From: an uncultured Desulfobulbaceae bacterium
GTDB lineage: Bacteria > Desulfobacterota > Desulfobulbia > Desulfobulbales > CALZHT01
Assembly: GCA_945787445.1 (NCBI GenBank)
Contig: CALZHT010000013.1
Span: 54,079-118,078, forward strand
DNA: 64,000 nt
Reading direction: 5' to 3'
How positions within the stretch are numbered: the first letter of the stretch is position 1; each line of letters starts with the position of its first letter. The notes beneath the pieces are model-generated. The model did not search any database. It saw only the letters and a list, made by a program, of their open reading frames with translations, and was not told the DNA's origin. The position numbers were made by a program, and so were the translations under genes. Below, in pieces: positions 9,625 to 28,897 of the stretch.

Positions 9625-11277
9625 TTACACCGGGCGTGGTCCTACCTCCATGAGATTCATTGCTTCCTTGTTGCCTTTATACGCAGCTTCAAATTTTTCC
9701 TGGAAGCTTTTTGCCAGTCTGTTTGCCGCTTGCCGGTAAGCCGCGACATTGTCCCAAACCTCCCACGGTTTAAGGATATCCTGGGATGACAATCCTATGC
9801 ACTCTGTTATCATGTCAACACCGAACTGCTCATGGGTCTGGTGCCTGGCGTGATTAAGGTCTCCATCCAAGGCCGCGGCTATCATGGCTCTGCTGTCCTT
9901 GATTGCAATCCGTGATCCAACCCCATAGCCTCCGCCTGACCAGCCGGTATTTACCAAATACACCTGGGCGCCAAATTGTTCTAATTTTTTTTCCAATAGT
10001 TGGGCATATTCAAACAAATCCCTCGGCATAAAAGGGAGACCATAGCAGGCGGAAAAAAATGGTTGGGGCTCGGTTACGCCGACTTCGGTTCCGGCCAGTT
10101 TCGAGGTGTATCCCATTAAAAAGTGGTACATGGCCTGTTTGGAACTGAGCCTTGAAATCGGCGGCAATGTTCCGGTGGCGTCTGCCGATAAAAAGAAAAT
10201 CGTTTTCGGATGCTTGGCCGTGCCGGTTTCGCTCGGATTCGGTAAACTTTTTAAGGGGTAAGATCCTCTGGTGTTTTCCGTAATATTGCCGTCATCATAG
10301 TTGAATCTTCCTTTCCGCATGACAATGTTTTCCGCCAGGGCGCCAAACTTCTTCATGGCATTGTAAATATCAGGTTCGGCATTTTTATCCAGCTTGATAA
10401 GCTTTGCATAGCAGCCCCCTTCCATGGCAAATAAGCCATTCGGGCCCCAGGCAATTTCATCATCGCCAAGCATTGCCCGGTCCGGGTCCGAAGATAAGGT
10501 AGTTTTCCCGGTGCCGGAGAGCCCGAAAAACACCGCAGATTCTCTATCATTGCCAATGTTGGCGCCGCAATGCATGGGGAATATATCCATTGTGGGGTAA
10601 ATATAATTTAAGAATGTAAAGGCGCCTTTTTTGGGTTCCCCGCAATAGTTCATGCCGGCGGCCAGAATCCTTCGCTTTTTAAAATCAAGAACGACGGCAC
10701 CGTCCTGTTTCAGGCCGTATTTTTCCGGGTCGATTTTGAGTTCGGGCAATACTATTGCCGTTACGGCGTCCTGGGCAATCTGGCCCTCTGCGATCATATC
10801 CAAAGGCGGCAGGTCGCGGAATTGATTTATGGCAAATAATGCCCTGGATGCATGGGATGTTATGAATTGAAAGGGAAAGGCATTCATTAGATCAGAACCC
10901 AGCATGCGGTTTGCCACGAAAATTTCCCCTGTTTTATTGATATATTTGATCATTTCATTATAAATCTTGTTCGCCGTGCTTCTGGAGATTGGCTGGTTCA
11001 GCTTCTTGTTGGAAAAGTCAACGCCGGGTGCATCGTCACAGATATATCGTGCCGCAGGAGTTCTGCCAGTATGCCTCTGTTTGCCATACTGATCATCAAC
11101 CCTTGTATTGATAACCAGGGTGCCTTTCCTGCTCAGGACGCCTTCTCCTCTACGTACCGCTTCCGTAACCAGTTGCGAAAAGTGAAGATTATCAATACCT
11201 TCTGTTTCACCTAAATTAGAGGTTACCGTATCTTTTATGCCCAGTCTGCCCAGATTAAGCAATTCGTCGACAGCCAT
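9625..11277 (-). CDS. pckA: phosphoenolpyruvate carboxykinase (ATP)
   Basis: 550 aa with the kinase-1a motif GLSGTGKTTLS and PckA-like context (FFGLSGTGKTTLSSDP, NTGWSGG). Confidence 0.9.
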   Translation of the reverse strand: MAVDELLNLGRLGIKDTVTSNLGETEGIDNLHFSQLVTEAVRRGEGVLSRKGTLVINTRVDDQYGKQRHTGRTPAARYICDDAPGVDFSNKKLNQPISRSTANKIYNEMIKYINKTGEIFVANRMLGSDLMNAFPFQFITSHASRALFAINQFRDLPPLDMIAEGQIAQDAVTAIVLPELKIDPEKYGLKQDGAVVLDFKKRRILAAGMNYCGEPKKGAFTFLNYIYPTMDIFPMHCGANIGNDRESAVFFGLSGTGKTTLSSDPDRAMLGDDEIAWGPNGLFAMEGGCYAKLIKLDKNAEPDIYNAMKKFGALAENIVMRKGRFNYDDGNITENTRGSYPLKSLPNPSETGTAKHPKTIFFLSADATGTLPPISRLSSKQAMYHFLMGYTSKLAGTEVGVTEPQPFFSACYGLPFMPRDLFEYAQLLEKKLEQFGAQVYLVNTGWSGGGYGVGSRIAIKDSRAMIAAALDGDLNHARHQTHEQFGVDMITECIGLSSQDILKPWEVWDNVAAYRQAANRLAKSFQEKFEAAYKGNKEAMNLMEVGPRPV

Positions 11278-20964: not shown

Positions 20965-21041
20965 TACTGATTTCTTGATTTCTATTTTATGTCCTTAGTA
21001 TGTAATTATTGTGAAAGGATAGCATCAGCGTCTTTATAAAA

Positions 21042-21056
21042 GCAATACTGATGCCA
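21042..21056 (-). promoter_or_regulatory. sigma-54 (-24/-12) promoter of the efflux operon
   Basis: Minus strand reads TGGCATCAGTATTGC: GG and GC with exact consensus spacing (TGGCAY-N5-TTGC). It is about 78 nt upstream of the ATG at 20964. Confidence 0.7.
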
Positions 21057-24490: not shown

Positions 24491-24728
24491 CCAAAAAGAA
24501 AGGGCAGCCGTTCACTTGGTCCCGCGTTGCGTGACTACCCTGCGTGCTCAGACAGTCCTCGCGCTTAATCCGGCCAATTCTGCGCTGCTCGGCTGCGTGA
24601 AATGGCAATGTAAAAAGCTTAACTGCTAATATTGATTACCCTTTTAGATTCGCATCTTTTGCCACTCCTACTAAGGGCGGTCGTTAATTAACAGATCAAC
24701 TTAATTTAAGGTGAAGGGGAGGAAAATA

Positions 24729-25190
24729 ATGAAACTGTATCTTGTGCAGCACGCTCAGGCCACCTCCAAGGAGGAAGATTCCAGACGGCCGCTTGCCATG
24801 CAGGGGTTGGATGACATCAGAAAGGTTGCGGAATATGGCGCAGCCCATTGCGCCATTATCGTTGATAAGGTATTGCACAGCGGCAAACTGCGTGCCCAGC
24901 AGACGGCGGACGCCCTTGCTTCTACGATGAATCTGCCGGCGCCGGAGGAAACCGACGGCCTGGAACCTCTTGCCGATCCTTCACTCTGGGCGGATCGCCT
25001 TGCAGAAAATGAGGATGATCTGATGCTGGTGGGCCATCTGCCCCATATGGCCAGGCTTGCCTCCTTTCTGCTGTGCAAGGATGCAGACAGGGGTGTGGTC
25101 CGCTTTCAGATGGGTGGTGTTGTCGCTCTTGAACGGGACGATTCTTTTCAATGGTCGCTGAGCTGGATGATTGTCCCAGCGATTCTGTAA
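24729..25190 (+). CDS. sixA: phosphohistidine phosphatase SixA-like
   Basis: MKLYLVQHA start (RHG-type histidine phosphatase N-terminus, LVQHA...) and HSGKLRAQQTA. RBS AAGGGGAGG. Confidence 0.75.
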   Translation: MKLYLVQHAQATSKEEDSRRPLAMQGLDDIRKVAEYGAAHCAIIVDKVLHSGKLRAQQTADALASTMNLPAPEETDGLEPLADPSLWADRLAENEDDLMLVGHLPHMARLASFLLCKDADRGVVRFQMGGVVALERDDSFQWSLSWMIVPAIL

Positions 25191-25210
25191 TGTCTTTGTG
25201 GTAATAGTCT

Positions 25211-25457
25211 CAGTTAAGGTAAGTACCCCTTCCTTTCAATTAGGCAGCTTTAGGTCGTATTTGTTATTTTCGTGCTCGTGCGCGTAATCGTGTAATCGAT
25301 TTTCCTTGTATTCATAATCAAACACAGAATGCTTCCTTTTCAATTACGATTACGATTACGAGCACGAAAACGTTACAAACGGATCTTTTTGACCCGTATC
25401 CGGACTTTCAGTCCTTTGCATTCAAAATCCATCGTCTTCAGACGGAGGCTGTTGGGT
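25211..25457 (+). repeat. family A structured element, copy A1
   Basis: Aligns over its full length with A2-A4. It carries 3 CGATTA-type units and 1 AGCACG unit in the right arm. Confidence 0.9.
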
Positions 25458-25493
25458 CTCTACACCCCTTCTCCTTGGCTTGTGGGCCAAAGG

Positions 25494-26057
25494 TTAAAAA
25501 TGCTGGTCGGTAAGTTCCAGAAACTGAGAAACTGAGGTCACATAGGTCGGCTCCGGCTCGGGCTCTTCCAGCAGTTCAACAGTAAAGAGCTGTTTTTTTA
25601 TTGGATCCTGCCGGATAATCCATAATTTCCATTCCGCTCCTTCTTTGAAAAGGATGCATCCCCTTTTACCGCTGGCATGCCAGAGATCCTGGAAAGGTAC
25701 TTTGGCTGTTGCACCATTTCTGAGTTTGAGAATGTTGCTCTCTCTTTCCTCAATGAAAGTACTGTATGCCGGTATTCCCGAGGGTAGAGCAATGTCAGAT
25801 TCGCCTGCAATTCGGCCTGTATGTTGTTTGTTCTGAGTGGAGGATTTGTAAGCTATTATAGCAGTGGCAATGTCATCCGAATTGAAGTGCAGGAGAGATT
25901 GATCCGCGACACACACCCCTTCAATAAGAGAGTACCCTATCTCACAACTGGGATTTCCGGAAAAATCCTTTGGATTTGAAATATCAATGAGATTTGCAAA
26001 AGATAGCGAATGTATCAACAGAAAGAATACAAAGCATATACACCATAGCTTTTTCAT
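25494..26057 (-). CDS. secreted hypothetical protein, 187 aa
   Basis: RBS GGAGGAG before ATG 26057. Signal peptide MKKLWCICFVFFLLIHSLSFA. No family recognised. Confidence 0.6.
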   Translation of the reverse strand: MKKLWCICFVFFLLIHSLSFANLIDISNPKDFSGNPSCEIGYSLIEGVCVADQSLLHFNSDDIATAIIAYKSSTQNKQHTGRIAGESDIALPSGIPAYSTFIEERESNILKLRNGATAKVPFQDLWHASGKRGCILFKEGAEWKLWIIRQDPIKKQLFTVELLEEPEPEPTYVTSVSQFLELTDQHF

Positions 26058-26300
26058 GGATCTCCTCCCCACCAGAAAGAATTTCGAAGGTTTGTTCCTT
26101 ATAAATGCATAAGTACTGTGGCATCAAACCAGCTGCCCCCCAAGTCGCCGGTCGTGATACATGTATATATGAAAAATGGAGGCGATGAAGTCAACCATAA
26201 AATAGCCAGAGAGGAGAGATTGTGCCATGGATGGACCTGCGGAGGATTCTAATGATAGTTGCTCGTTTGTTTCCTACTTAATTCTGCCGGGAGTCTTGAT

Positions 26301-26315
26301 TTGCCAAAATGGCAA
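26301..26315. promoter_or_regulatory. palindrome TTGCCA-AAA-TGGCAA, candidate activator site
   Basis: Perfect 6-3-6 inverted repeat about 80 bp upstream of the sigma-54 promoter at 26390. Confidence 0.35.
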
Positions 26316-26389
26316 AAAATCGTGCCATAATGACAGGAATAAACGCCACTCAATTTTATAAGTATTTAATATTGTTACTTTTTTCGTGT

Positions 26390-26405
26390 TGGCATGGAAT
26401 TGGCA
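26390..26405 (+). promoter_or_regulatory. sigma-54 (-24/-12) promoter
   Basis: TGGCATGGAATTGGCA: GG and GC at exact consensus spacing with one mismatch (TGGC for TTGC). It is 75 nt upstream of ATG 26480. Confidence 0.6.
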
Positions 26406-26479
26406 ATAGTATAAAAGCAAAGAGCAAAAAAAGGATTCAAAAAGGCAACAAGAGAAAAAAGTATAACAGGAGGAACATC

Positions 26480-26692
26480 ATGAACACCACAATGACAAAA
26501 AATAAAACCAGGACTCAGGGAATTGCATCCGTTAATACTGGAACAGCTGCAGTAACAAAAGGCGGCATGGCTGTCTTGGCCGGTTCATCTGCACTGGTTG
26601 GCATTTGGGCAACTGCCTGCATGGCAATAGCACTCGTATCCAGCGGACCTGCTGAACTTATCAGAGGTTGGTTAGGGGCAGTGATTGGCTAA
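26480..26692 (+). CDS. small single-pass membrane protein, paralog 1 (70 aa)
   Basis: RBS AGGAGG. MNTTMTKNKTRTQG...SSALVGIWATACMAIALV...IRGWLGAVIG. Paralogous to the next ORF. Confidence 0.7.
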   Translation: MNTTMTKNKTRTQGIASVNTGTAAVTKGGMAVLAGSSALVGIWATACMAIALVSSGPAELIRGWLGAVIG

Positions 26693-26729
26693 GAATCTGT
26701 AAATAGAATTTCTCAGTGAGGCGACGACC

Positions 26730-26945
26730 ATGACCAGGACATTGGCAAAAACCAAAAACAAGACAAAAGAGATTGAAAGCACCCAGGCCGGTATTGATTC
26801 CGTTTCCAAAAGCAGCCTTATTGCCATGGGGGTAATCTCAGCACTGGTCGGCCTTTGGGCCTTGGCCTGCCTGATCAGCGCTATTTCAGGCGGCGGGCTT
26901 ATGGAGATGACCCAGGGATTGTTCACGGCCTTAACTGGAAAGTAG
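26730..26945 (+). CDS. small single-pass membrane protein, paralog 2 (71 aa)
   Basis: MTRTLAKTKNKTKE...ISALVGLWALACLISAIS...TQGLFTALTGK. The shared core with paralog 1 is SALVG(I/L)WA.AC. Confidence 0.7.
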   Translation: MTRTLAKTKNKTKEIESTQAGIDSVSKSSLIAMGVISALVGLWALACLISAISGGGLMEMTQGLFTALTGK

Positions 26946-27002
26946 AAAGAGGTTAAAGAAGCACGCTTCAGATTTCCTTCTGTAAGATATCAAAATAAAA
27001 AA

Positions 27003-27043
27003 GCCCATTCCGAGGATCGAAAGATTGCGGAATGGGCTTTTTT
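27003..27043 (+). terminator. intrinsic (bidirectional-looking) terminator
   Basis: GCCCATTCCG...CGGAATGGGC 10-bp stem, with an A run before and T6 after. Confidence 0.85.
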
Positions 27044-27050
27044 ATTGTCG

Positions 27051-27315
27051 CAGTTAAGGTTAATACCCCCCTGCCTTTCATGCAGGCAGCTATAGCTCGT
27101 ATTTGTTGTTTTCGTGCTCGTGCGCGTAATCGTAATCGATTTTCCTTGTATTCATAATCAAACACGTAATGCTTCCTTTTCGATTACGGTTACGGTTACG
27201 GTTACGATTACGATTACGAGCACGAGCACGATACAAACGGATCTATTTGAGCCGTACCGGACTTTCCAGTCCTTTTTATTCAAAACCCACCGTCTTTAGA
27301 CGGAGGTTGTTGAGT
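27051..27315 (+). repeat. family A structured element, copy A2
   Basis: Full-length copy with 6 CG(A/G)TTA units and 2 AGCACG units. Its last 36 nt overlap the 3' end of the ykgJ-like ORF. Confidence 0.9.
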
Positions 27316-27861
27316 AATGATGTCCCTGATGGAGATTCGTTGAACTGGTAAGTGCCCTATTTTTTGGCTAAATTTTTCGTTTAGAGTAGCAAGTATTGCA
27401 TTGAATTGGTCCATCAGGAGCAAGTCATCGATCCCAAATTCCGCATCTTCCGAAAAATTAACAGGGCAGGCAGAGACCTCGATCGTCTCGTTATTATTAT
27501 TTACATATCCAACAGGCAAGCCGTGGGTGCGGCAGATGAGGGGCCTTGCCTGATATACGCTGCAGAGGTTTTCGATCAGAAATGGGCAGGCTCTGTTTTT
27601 ATTTTTTGCCTGACTGTGAATTATTTGGATTACGTCATTGCTTAATGCGTTGAATGCCTCTTGCAAAATCTCTGCTTCCAAAGGCAAGACGCTCAGTTCC
27701 TTACAGCACTTGATACAGCCGGGCCTGCACTGAAGTATACCCTTATATTGCTTTTCCAGCTTGCGGATTTCATTGTTAACATCTTCCATAAGTTTTTTGT
27801 AGTCATTAAAACAAATCATCGCTGCATAGTAGCGCTGATCCGATAATTTTGGAATATCCAA
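27280..27861 (-). CDS. YkgJ-family cysteine-cluster protein
   Basis: CRPGCIKCCK and ACPFLIENLCSVYQARPLICRTHG motifs. The last 11 codons and the stop lie inside repeat A2. Confidence 0.75.
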   Translation of the reverse strand: MDIPKLSDQRYYAAMICFNDYKKLMEDVNNEIRKLEKQYKGILQCRPGCIKCCKELSVLPLEAEILQEAFNALSNDVIQIIHSQAKNKNRACPFLIENLCSVYQARPLICRTHGLPVGYVNNNNETIEVSACPVNFSEDAEFGIDDLLLMDQFNAILATLNEKFSQKIGHLPVQRISIRDIITQQPPSKDGGF

Positions 27862-28018
27862 AATAAAGACATATTGATCAGCCTGAAGAAGAGAAGCAGG
27901 ATGTGCTTTTCAGCAAGCCGCGGAAAGTTTCATTCTTAACATGGAATTCATTTCGGTTCAAATTATGTTTGACAATCCCTTTTCAAGCTTGCCAAGATTT
28001 TAGTGAGGTCAAAATATG

Positions 28019-28261
28019 TGGCAGCCGGCTTAAGCTCGTATTTGTTATATTCGTGCTCGTGCGCGTAATCGTAATCGATTTTCCTTGTATTCATAATCAA
28101 ACACGTAATGTTTCCTTTTCGATTACGATTACGATTACGATTACGATTACGATTACGATTGCGAGCACGAGCACGATACATACGGGCCTATTTGACCTGT
28201 ATCCGGACTTTCTAGTCCTTTTTATTCAAAACCCACTGTCTTTAGACGGAGGTTGTTGAGT
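28019..28261 (+). repeat. family A structured element, copy A3 (5' hairpin module missing)
   Basis: Aligns from GGCAGCCGGCTTAAGCTCGTATTTG to GGAGGTTGTTGAGT. It has 7 CGATTA units plus 2 AGCACG units. Confidence 0.9.
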
Positions 28262-28264
28262 TAT

Positions 28265-28897
28265 ATGGGAGTGTTGAAGGTAAGAGGCTTCCAAACTGCT
28301 AGGAGTTCAATTGGGTCCTTTTTCTCCATGGGACCCTTTGTCGCCGTAATTACCTTGATCATGGTTTTCATGGCAGGAACAGCGGCGGCAAATGAAGTAA
28401 TGGGGAAGGGAGGTGGCGCCATGGCATTTATTATTGTTTCGGATGTGTTTCGGCACAAAGGAGGGATACCAAGCGATTACACTTGTGACGGAAGGGATGT
28501 TTCTCCGCCCTTGGAATGGTCGGGAGCACCTATAGGCACAAAGAGCCTGGCTCTTATCGTGGATGATCCGGATGCCCCGGACCCGGCTGCACCGAAAATG
28601 ACCTGGGTGCACTGGGTGTTGTATAATATTCCGCCTGAGATAAACGGGTTGGCTGAAGACGTTGAACCCAGCCAGCTTCCGGATGGAATTAAGGAGGGGA
28701 CCAATAACTGGAACCGCACCCGATACGGCGGACCCTGCCCACCCATTGGCACCCATCGATATTTCCATAAACTCTATGCCCTGGACACTGTGCTGCCTGA
28801 CTTAAAAAAACCTTCCAAGGAGAAGCTTTTGCAGGCAATGGAGGGACATATTCTGGCCAAGGCGGAATTGATTGGTACCTACGATCGATCCCGTTAG
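28265..28897 (+). CDS. YbhB/YbcL family PEBP-like protein with N-terminal signal/TM segment
   Basis: YTCDGRDVSPPLEWSGAP, LIVDDPDAP and GPCPP.GTHRY.F.LYAL are typical of bacterial PEBP. The start is uncertain: TTG 28253, ATG 28265 or ATG 28328. Confidence 0.8.
   Translation: MGVLKVRGFQTARSSIGSFFSMGPFVAVITLIMVFMAGTAAANEVMGKGGGAMAFIIVSDVFRHKGGIPSDYTCDGRDVSPPLEWSGAPIGTKSLALIVDDPDAPDPAAPKMTWVHWVLYNIPPEINGLAEDVEPSQLPDGIKEGTNNWNRTRYGGPCPPIGTHRYFHKLYALDTVLPDLKKPSKEKLLQAMEGHILAKAELIGTYDRSR

Follow-up and report, generated by a model that had tools for sequence, protein, structure and literature searches.

A probable sigma-54-dependent operon for two paralogous single-pass membrane proteins in a Desulfobulbaceae bacterium, and the small-protein family to which it belongs

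Within a 64,000-nucleotide stretch of DNA from an uncultured Desulfobulbaceae bacterium (contig CALZHT010000013.1, positions 54,079 to 118,078; hereafter 'the window', whose own numbering is used below unless another locus is named), two adjacent short genes, here termed orfA and orfB, very probably constitute an activator-dependent, and probably kinase-dependent, sigma-54 operon that encodes two paralogues, each an inner-membrane protein with a single membrane span. Locally, they represent a family whose genes form tandem arrays of up to six copies. It can be proposed tentatively, by association, that its products are inducible modulators of membrane-protein or respiratory-complex homeostasis with a tie to the FtsH protease; among the functions that an earlier note, made from the sequence of this region, had entertained, that of a stress effector or modulator is the one favoured by gene neighbourhoods.

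The first gene, orfA (26480-26692, forward strand), encodes 70 amino acids and carries the ribosome-binding site AGGAGG (26468-26473) 6 nucleotides 5' of its ATG, while orfB (26730-26945, forward strand) encodes 71 amino acids and has GAGG (26718-26721) 8 nucleotides 5' of its ATG; both open reading frames, with their good ribosome-binding sites, are thus present where the earlier note had placed them. The list of open reading frames offers a longer frame of 127 amino acids from 26309; relatives keep the internal ATG at 26480 as the start. An ungapped alignment of the two products over 70 residues (36% identity, E 3e-13), together with the common core SALVG(I/L)WAxAC, marks them as the paralogues that they had been taken to be. 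The same pair occurs in the same order on three metagenome contigs (L002, L003 and L004), and the window and L003 also have flanking genes in common. The product of orfA is 61% identical to that of the first gene of L003 (with dN/dS, the ratio of nonsynonymous to synonymous substitution rates, at 0.31 and 0.18), and that of orfB is 71% identical to the relative P0003 and 65% to P0004 (dN/dS 0.11 and 0.30); the overall range of 0.11-0.31 in comparisons with L002 and L003 (Nei-Gojobori method) corresponds to purifying selection. Conservation and selection exclude the possibility that the two reading frames are spurious, and an antisense frame that lies over orfB (26672-26926) was also rejected, as it is broken in L003 and L007 and the selection acts on the forward frame.

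The evidence for sigma-54 control begins with the element TGGCATGGAATTGGCA (26390-26405, forward strand), which displays the GG-N10-GC spacing of a '-24/-12' promoter; transcription would start near 26416, leaving a predicted 5' untranslated region of about 63 nucleotides. Considered alone this element is weak, because the window holds two matches against 0.5 expected, a number that was equalled in 8 of 100 shuffled sequences. The reading becomes strong because the element is conserved across the heads of arrays: when at most two mismatches to TGGCAC-N5-TTGCA are allowed and the GG and GC are held fixed, it is found upstream of 61 of the 85 array heads (from 77 distinct loci), against 0.047 expected per head, with TGGCACGN4TGGCA as its typical form. 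The promoter and its spacing, described earlier for the window, are therefore features that the relatives retain along with the genes. No sigma-70-like promoter was found between 25400 and 27900.

Further upstream, the palindrome TTGCCAAAATGGCAA (26301-26315) to which the earlier note had drawn attention is real, although it represents only the first half of a two-site enhancer that is conserved as a pair. Each site is a 13-bp palindrome of the form TGNCA-N3-TGNCA: the first, TGCCAAAATGGCA, lies at 26302-26314, and the second, TGCCATAATGACA, at 26323-26335, starting 21 bp after the start of the first. Such paired sites (upstream activating sequences) are found in 27 loci, and in all 13 two-site loci that were tabulated the gap between them is 8-9 bp, which places their starts two helical turns apart. 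The distance from the second site to the -24 element is 53-55 nucleotides in nine of these 13 loci and 63-67 nucleotides in the rest. In approximately 885 kb of fetched loci, with both strands counted, the paired pattern has 56 matches; the 27 palindromic sites that precede arrays, each of which matches once per strand, explain about 54 of them. The spacer that separates enhancer from promoter (74% A+T) contains TAAGTATTTAATA (26359-26371, reverse strand), an IHF-like site with one mismatch to YAANNNNTTGATW; of 14 loci, 11 have a site with at most one mismatch in the corresponding interval, where chance would give 0.05 per 55 nucleotides. Judged by its sequence, the arrangement is that of a textbook enhancer-dependent sigma-54 promoter.

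The operon is closed by the strong terminator that had been noted downstream, which corresponds to a hairpin at 26997-27046 (forward strand) with the stem GCCCATTCCG/CGGAATGGGC, in which a G+C stem of 10 bp is lengthened by pairing between an A-tract and a U-tract, followed by the T run TTTTTTATT. The flank that contains it (26946-27060) folds with a minimum free energy of -40.3 kcal/mol (z = -5.2). A simple terminator scan missed the hairpin because its loop is longer than 8 nucleotides, and a comparison of 24500-28500 with Rfam returned only sub-threshold matches, located on the same hairpin. From its symmetry, the terminator could work in both directions.

The two proteins fit no named family, as the earlier note had suspected: neither Pfam nor NCBIfam provided a credible match to either of them (NCBIfam none at E<=10), Pfam gave only scattered single matches and no credible family when applied to 142 distant family members, and a profile search of PDB sequences returned one chance match (E 0.2). 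The homologues that might place them, for which a search had been proposed, became visible only through profile methods; single-sequence searches of word indexes returned almost nothing. A profile search of 5.8 billion proteins recovered 165 relatives, and an exhaustive HMMER search of 1.84 billion cluster representatives recovered 366 clusters (at 50% identity) with E<1e-3, 99 of them with E<1e-10; the best 150 of the 366 are all stand-alone proteins of 41-114 amino acids. Among 38 hits in genomes, nearly all of those assigned to a taxon finer than 'Deltaproteobacteria' or 'Proteobacteria' belong to Desulfobulbia, the named hosts being Desulfobulbaceae, Desulfobulbus, Desulfocapsa and Desulfobulbales and including Desulfogranum marinum DSM 2058, which is in culture. 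Two hits depart from this pattern: a contig that was binned as Geobacteraceae, and a weak match in a Nocardioides bin (E 7e-4), the latter set aside. Of the 77 distinct loci, most contain a tandem array of two to six family genes: two in 39 loci, three in nine, four in three, five in three and six in one, the remaining 22 loci having a single gene. Clustering of the paralogues yields stable types: orfA belongs to cluster 12 and orfB to cluster 11, the best-conserved type of the family, which stands last in nearly all arrays of the enhancer type. Because these apparently old paralogues have been co-retained in a fixed order, it can be argued that they have distinct roles, most simply as partners in a hetero-oligomer.

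Each protein contains one hydrophobic helix, in agreement with the single transmembrane segment originally proposed, and the maxima of Kyte-Doolittle hydropathy over 19 residues (1.81 for orfA and 2.43 for orfB) are both above the usual transmembrane threshold. The helix (approximately residues 29-53 in orfA) is preceded by an N-terminal tail of about 27 residues with a net charge of +4 in orfA, where it is polar and contains lysine and arginine and no acidic residues, and of +3 in orfB, and it is followed by a neutral C-terminal tail. By the positive-inside rule, each protein is therefore predicted to span the membrane once, its N-terminus facing the cytoplasm and its C-terminus the exterior. 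Among the 120 closest relatives, conservation (in orfA numbering) is concentrated at D23, M33, S37, G41, W43 (which is invariant), A44, A46, C47, A51, G56-P57, A67 and G70, the most conserved of these being S37, G41, W43, A44, A46 and C47 in the SALVG(I/L)WAxAC core, and also A51; in the wider set of 142 members only M1, G41, W43, G56, A67 and G70 exceed 90%. The conserved positions of the transmembrane segment form a face of small residues, with a helical conservation moment of 0.25 against 0.13 ± 0.06 in shuffles. An AlphaFold2 monomer model (built from 120 sequences; predicted local distance difference test score, pLDDT, 59.7) consists of one long helix, a kink at G56-P57 (within the motif SGP) and a short helix, which is amphipathic.

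Candidates for the activator are found in the relatives, where they fall into two groups. Those of group 1 (receiver, AAA+ and Fis-type helix-turn-helix domains; 64-77% identity) are encoded convergently just downstream of the arrays in L002, L010, L016 and L038, and 4 kb away in L005, and have a near-identical helix-turn-helix segment (GGDKTxAAKxLGIGLRTLYRK). Their partner kinase (present in L005, L010 and L016, where the contig is long enough to include it) begins with about 200 residues that have no Pfam match, followed by HAMP, HisKA and HATPase domains. The enhancer accompanies this group, having been located at L010 and L005 by the pattern scan and at L016, where the two sites are more distant from the array, by direct reading of the sequence ahead of it; for L002 and L038 the upstream DNA is cut off. 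Those of group 2 (receiver, PAS, AAA+ and helix-turn-helix domains; 51-91% identity) are encoded directly upstream of the array in L014, L032, L042 and L043 and at a distance of 3-8 kb in L027, L039 and L040. Arrays of this second group have a different and longer palindromic enhancer, GTTGCCATTATGTTGCAA-N9-TTGCAACATAATGGCAAC (L032, 8400-8450 and 9700-9760), and in L032 the five genes of the array are divided between two transcription units that have separate enhancers, -24/-12 elements and terminators. Neither group reaches any of the NCBIfam equivalog cut-offs (491 bits against 714 for AtoC, 389 against 760 for ZraR), and the activators are therefore generic NtrC/AtoC/ZraR-like proteins of an orthologous kind of their own. 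From these comparisons we infer that the operon of the window is driven by a group-1 orthologue encoded elsewhere in the genome.

In order to examine gene neighbourhoods, open reading frames within 6 kb of the arrays were clustered (38 genome loci), and reference proteins of the clusters were mapped by blastp onto all fetched loci (8-10 kb on each side). Of the 77 distinct loci, 23 have an FtsH paralogue (above the TIGR01241 cut-off) no further than 8 kb away, and in 15 of these it is directly downstream of the array; modules that combine an HmcC/NrfD-like membrane subunit, an iron-sulfur protein and a cytochrome c also recur in the vicinity. The surroundings of enhancer-type arrays, to which that of the window belongs, are varied and changing. 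Three layouts recur in other subfamilies. In 'type I' (for example L014, L032, L042 and L043), an iron-sulfur protein, a triheme c7 cytochrome, an NrfD/HmcC-like subunit, a kinase and a group-2 activator are followed by four or five family genes, FtsH and a second set of cytochrome, NrfD and iron-sulfur genes. In 'type II' (L027, L030, L031 and L044), the order is FtsH, a c3 cytochrome, an HmcB-like and an HmcC-like protein (NF045714, E 1e-107), a kinase-like protein, a family gene and a 100-residue protein termed B'. In 'type III' (L015, L022 and L036, with L063, L076 and L079 assigned by gene layout only), a cluster-11 gene of the orfB type and a longer paralogue are followed by FtsH, an NrfH/NapC-like cytochrome and a MerR-type regulator; all six of these loci, classed by gene layout with the orfB-type arrays, are among those with FtsH directly downstream.

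Type III indicates that the family is not always dependent on sigma-54, since its arrays have no recognisable -24/-12 element (L022, and likewise L011, L015, L024 and L036) and L022 has a near-consensus sigma-70 promoter at 9905-9935 (TTGCAA, a 16-nucleotide spacer and TATAAT); arrays of this type seem to use a sigma-70-like promoter instead. Their MerR-type protein might be HspR-like; its PDB matches are to GlnR/TnrA-type proteins only. In a fourth layout (L026, L033, L041 and L045), an HD-domain phosphohydrolase, LptD and a zinc metallopeptidase (PF04228) directly precede a single family gene, and a -24/-12 element was not detected.

The B' proteins of type II provide a further connection between the family and Hmc-type complexes. 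Nine of them were compared (L027 10214-10513, L031 10672-10974 and seven others), and these have 50 invariant positions and the motif HTLVDFYTHIKGIEYLICVAFFVAFP. Their N-terminal helix matches the family profile (hhalign probability 90%, E 1.7e-6) and all nine match the HmcD model below its cut-off (best E 9.5e-5), on which grounds B' is read as a natural fusion protein, its first helix being family-like and its second resembling HmcD. In D. marinum DSM 2058 (L031, 7750-10977) the unit of a family gene (64 amino acids) and B' (approximately 100 amino acids) is triplicated in tandem at a spacing of about 1.3 kb, and every copy has a -24/-12 element to itself; the genes that border the set encode a GAF-containing kinase-like protein on one side and an HD-domain protein of 1013 amino acids on the other.

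Taken together, these observations suggest a scheme in which the operon would be off by default and would be turned on by an NtrC-type response regulator, after a membrane-bound histidine kinase whose sensor region is periplasmic has phosphorylated that regulator. The activator would bind both TGNCA-N3-TGNCA sites (26302-26335), IHF would bend the A+T-rich spacer, and the ATPase of the activator would then open the promoter at 26390-26405. The products of orfA and orfB would be inserted into the cytoplasmic membrane, with the basic and disordered N-terminal tail of about 27 residues in the cytoplasm and, after the conserved Gly-Pro kink, the C-terminal part as a short amphipathic helix on the periplasmic face. 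Because the small-residue face (S37, G41, A44, C47 and A51) is conserved and distinct types of paralogue stably co-occur, tight helix packing may be expected, both between the two products and with a larger membrane protein. They may shield or tag the membrane complexes, respiratory or otherwise, that are handled by FtsH, or may compete for them. That protease needs a free tail of about 20 residues in order to start degradation, and the predicted cytoplasmic tail of these proteins has about 27.

Several observations weigh against this scheme. It is only in relatives that an activator and kinase lie next to the array and that FtsH and Hmc-type genes are linked to it: the 64-kb window encodes no activator of the GAFTGA type, and the open reading frames within about 6 kb of the pair include no FtsH or Hmc-type gene. 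FtsH is nearby in none of the 27 enhancer-type loci, so that the functional link is carried over from sister subfamilies, and in L032 terminators separate FtsH from the arrays. The similarity to HmcD amounts to 18 bits against an NCBIfam cut-off of 34, and it concerns B' rather than orfA or orfB. The loci of related organisms are not independent, and the neighbourhood counts therefore overstate their support. Finally, the confidence of the AlphaFold2 monomer is low.

Other explanations for the pair must be weighed against the same observations. The proteins might be feedback connectors that attach to their own histidine kinase, in its transmembrane or periplasmic part, and adjust its activity in the way that MgrB and SafA act on PhoQ. 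The operon is a predicted target of a dedicated pair of kinase and response regulator, type II loci have a kinase-like membrane protein directly upstream of the array, and the regulation of sensor kinases by small single-pass proteins is well established (PMC12648545); yet arrays of up to six copies, several of which have strong promoters of their own (L025 and L031), suggest that the products are needed in quantity and not at a regulatory stoichiometry, type III arrays seem to lack both the sigma-54 element and two-component genes and still keep FtsH, and most enhancer-type loci have no kinase nearby, all of which makes a connector unlikely. Low odds also attach to a role as stoichiometric accessory subunits (in the manner of HmcD/NhcD, CydX or CcoQ) of a quinone-interacting complex of the NrfD/HmcC type, encoded apart from its catalytic genes. 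Such a role would accord with the position of the type II family gene and B' after the genes for cytochrome c3, the HmcB-like and the HmcC-like protein, with the HmcD-like helix that all nine B' members join to a family-like one, and with the cytochrome/NrfD/iron-sulfur modules on both sides of type I arrays. It is difficult to reconcile with the lack of any match between orfA or orfB and the HmcD model (NF045712), with the unrelated neighbourhoods of enhancer-type arrays, with the absence of Hmc-type genes among the open reading frames within about 6 kb of the window pair, and with copy numbers of one to six under separate inducible promoters, which are unlike those of a fixed subunit in a single-copy complex.

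A pair similar to a holin or a toxin had been raised as a possibility in the earlier note; such proteins would oligomerise into pores, be kept tightly off by sigma-54 control and be cleared by FtsH. Sigma-54 promoters do have a very low basal activity, the small-residue face is compatible with oligomerisation, and the long disordered tail would suit degradation by FtsH; but searches for phage, defence and contextual evidence added nothing in its favour. No convincing PHROG match was obtained (best E 0.02, to families of unknown function), nor any PADLOC match or phage match by tblastn, a holin family of Pfam was matched by one of 142 distant members (E 0.0095), and no prophage, endolysin, antitoxin, immunity or lysis gene was found at any locus examined. 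The family is chromosomal, conserved, present in multiple copies and under purifying selection, unlike typical toxin cassettes, and a pore is distinctly improbable. Exported products (pilin-like subunits whose leader is removed, or bacteriocins of the two-peptide class IIb) are the least credible of all: tandem paralogous short genes under sigma-54 control do occur among type IV pilins, and a [K/R][G/S/A][S/G] motif stands ahead of the hydrophobic stretch, which had suggested a class III signal peptide, but the alignments contain no G(-1)/E(+5), no Flp G/XXXXEY motif and no conserved double-glycine leader, and the surroundings of the arrays have no recurrent gene for a prepilin peptidase, for tad/pil functions, for an ABC exporter or for immunity. 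Conservation, moreover, lies in the helix and C-terminus, the opposite of cleaved or modified precursor peptides, in which the leader is conserved and the core is variable. Pairs resembling the light-harvesting alpha and beta proteins were dismissed as well, given that the conserved histidine is absent and the hosts are not phototrophs.

The regulatory half of the preferred explanation, an inducible sigma-54 operon for small membrane proteins, has close precedents. The NtrC/AtoC/ZraR-type promoters (such as glnAp2 and zraP) likewise combine a GG-N10-GC element with two palindromic activator sites on the same face of the DNA, approximately 55-90 bp upstream, and an IHF-like site between, and the relatives add the adjacent activator (receiver, AAA+ and Fis-type helix-turn-helix) and HAMP-HisKA kinase. 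What differs is that the activators of the family form their own orthologous group and that the target genes are new; the enhancer site TGNCA-N3-TGNCA matched no described activator. The architecture is thus classical, with no evidence of an unusual mechanism. The Psp system (PspF with PspB, PspC and PspG) is similar in placing small inner-membrane proteins, with a plausible role in membrane stress, under sigma-54 control. It was rejected as the identity of the pair because Pfam provides no match to the Psp families and the neighbourhoods have no linkage to pspA or pspF; in addition, the activator of the relatives is a phosphorylated response regulator, whereas activators of the PspF type lack a receiver domain.

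Small membrane proteins provide precedents for each of the proposed activities, with MgtS and MgtR acting with FtsH, MgrB and SafA with kinases, and CydX and CcoQ in oxidases (PMC12648545). The proteins that steer FtsH (MgtR, MgtS, YccA and SpoVM) resemble the family in being small or single-pass and induced by two-component systems, and the presence of family genes near FtsH in 23 of 77 loci is in keeping with this; the present proteins are approximately twice as long as MgtR and MgtS, have no sequence similarity to the known cases, occur as arrays of paralogues and, in the window, have no FtsH gene beside them. With HmcD/NhcD of the Hmc and Nhc complexes of sulfate reducers the likeness is positional, in that the type II family gene and B' occupy the place after HmcC-like genes; orfA and orfB differ in lacking a match to the HmcD model, in having their own inducible promoter and in standing apart, by at least the 6 kb or so considered here, from the genes of such a complex. 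The connectors MgrB and SafA share with the family the description of a small single-pass product of a two-component target gene, and kinase feedback could be proposed by analogy, but there is no homology, and arrays and paralogue pairs are particular to the family. As far as the libraries and literature were searched, no description exists of the family, of the two groups of activators dedicated to it, of its enhancer sequence or of its recurrent association with FtsH and NrfD-type modules; literature searches found no account of the protein family.

The DNA around the operon has features of its own. Intergenic repeats of about 250 nucleotides occur in the same orientation at 25204-25457, 27044-27315 and 28007-28260, are 64-91% identical, and each contain CGATTA/CGGTTA hexamers in a run of variable length as well as a long inverted repeat within the element, formed by CGTGCTCGTGCGCGTAATCGTAATCG and its complement; the repeat ('family A') looks like a miniature inverted-repeat transposable element or a repetitive extragenic palindromic element. 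Copies do flank the operon, as had been observed, and the second begins inside the tail of its terminator, but they also enclose the neighbouring gene for a 192-residue protein, and they look incidental to the function of the operon. As ends of a mobile unit they were rejected, being in the same orientation and flanking unrelated genes; in addition, the downstream gene is a different one in relatives whose gene order is otherwise shared. The 192-residue gene (25494-26072, reverse strand) is divergent from orfA, encodes an N-terminal signal-like hydrophobic segment, has no Pfam match and adjoins the pair in L003 and not in other loci; the intergenic region of 407 bp between it and orfA contains the enhancer. 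Elsewhere in the window a second -24/-12 element, TGGCATCAGTATTGCT (21041-21056, reverse strand), lies about 75 nucleotides upstream of an operon (20964 to 16560, reverse strand) whose products are two efflux proteins of the outer membrane and a fusion protein of the HlyD/CusB type that includes a heavy-metal-binding domain, and has two copies of AGAATATTCT about 60-100 nucleotides upstream of it; this operon is probably a sigma-54-controlled metal-efflux system.

Desulfobulbia, an environmentally important clade, include sulfur disproportionators, sulfate reducers and the relatives of cable bacteria, and the control of their membrane electron-transfer machinery is poorly understood. For this group, the analysis defines a sizeable family of small proteins for which the databases have no model, as well as a predictable switch composed of a promoter, an enhancer sequence and a candidate pair of activator and kinase. 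If the products are merely additional membrane-stress peptides, the outcome is a useful annotation and not a conceptual advance. A bolder interpretation, speculative enough that the odds are well against it, is that they represent an unrecognised class of inducible single-helix proteins that link FtsH to NrfD/HmcC-type modules in Desulfobulbia, where, upon a signal perceived by dedicated two-component sigma-54 systems, hetero-oligomers of paralogues would dock on membrane subunits and decide whether complexes are kept, remodelled or degraded, and of which B' would be the evolutionary trace of docking. In either case, the cultured carrier Desulfogranum marinum DSM 2058 is usable for experiments, and the recurrent linkage to FtsH and Hmc-type genes offers a testable entry into the stress-regulated homeostasis of membrane and respiratory complexes in Desulfobulbia.

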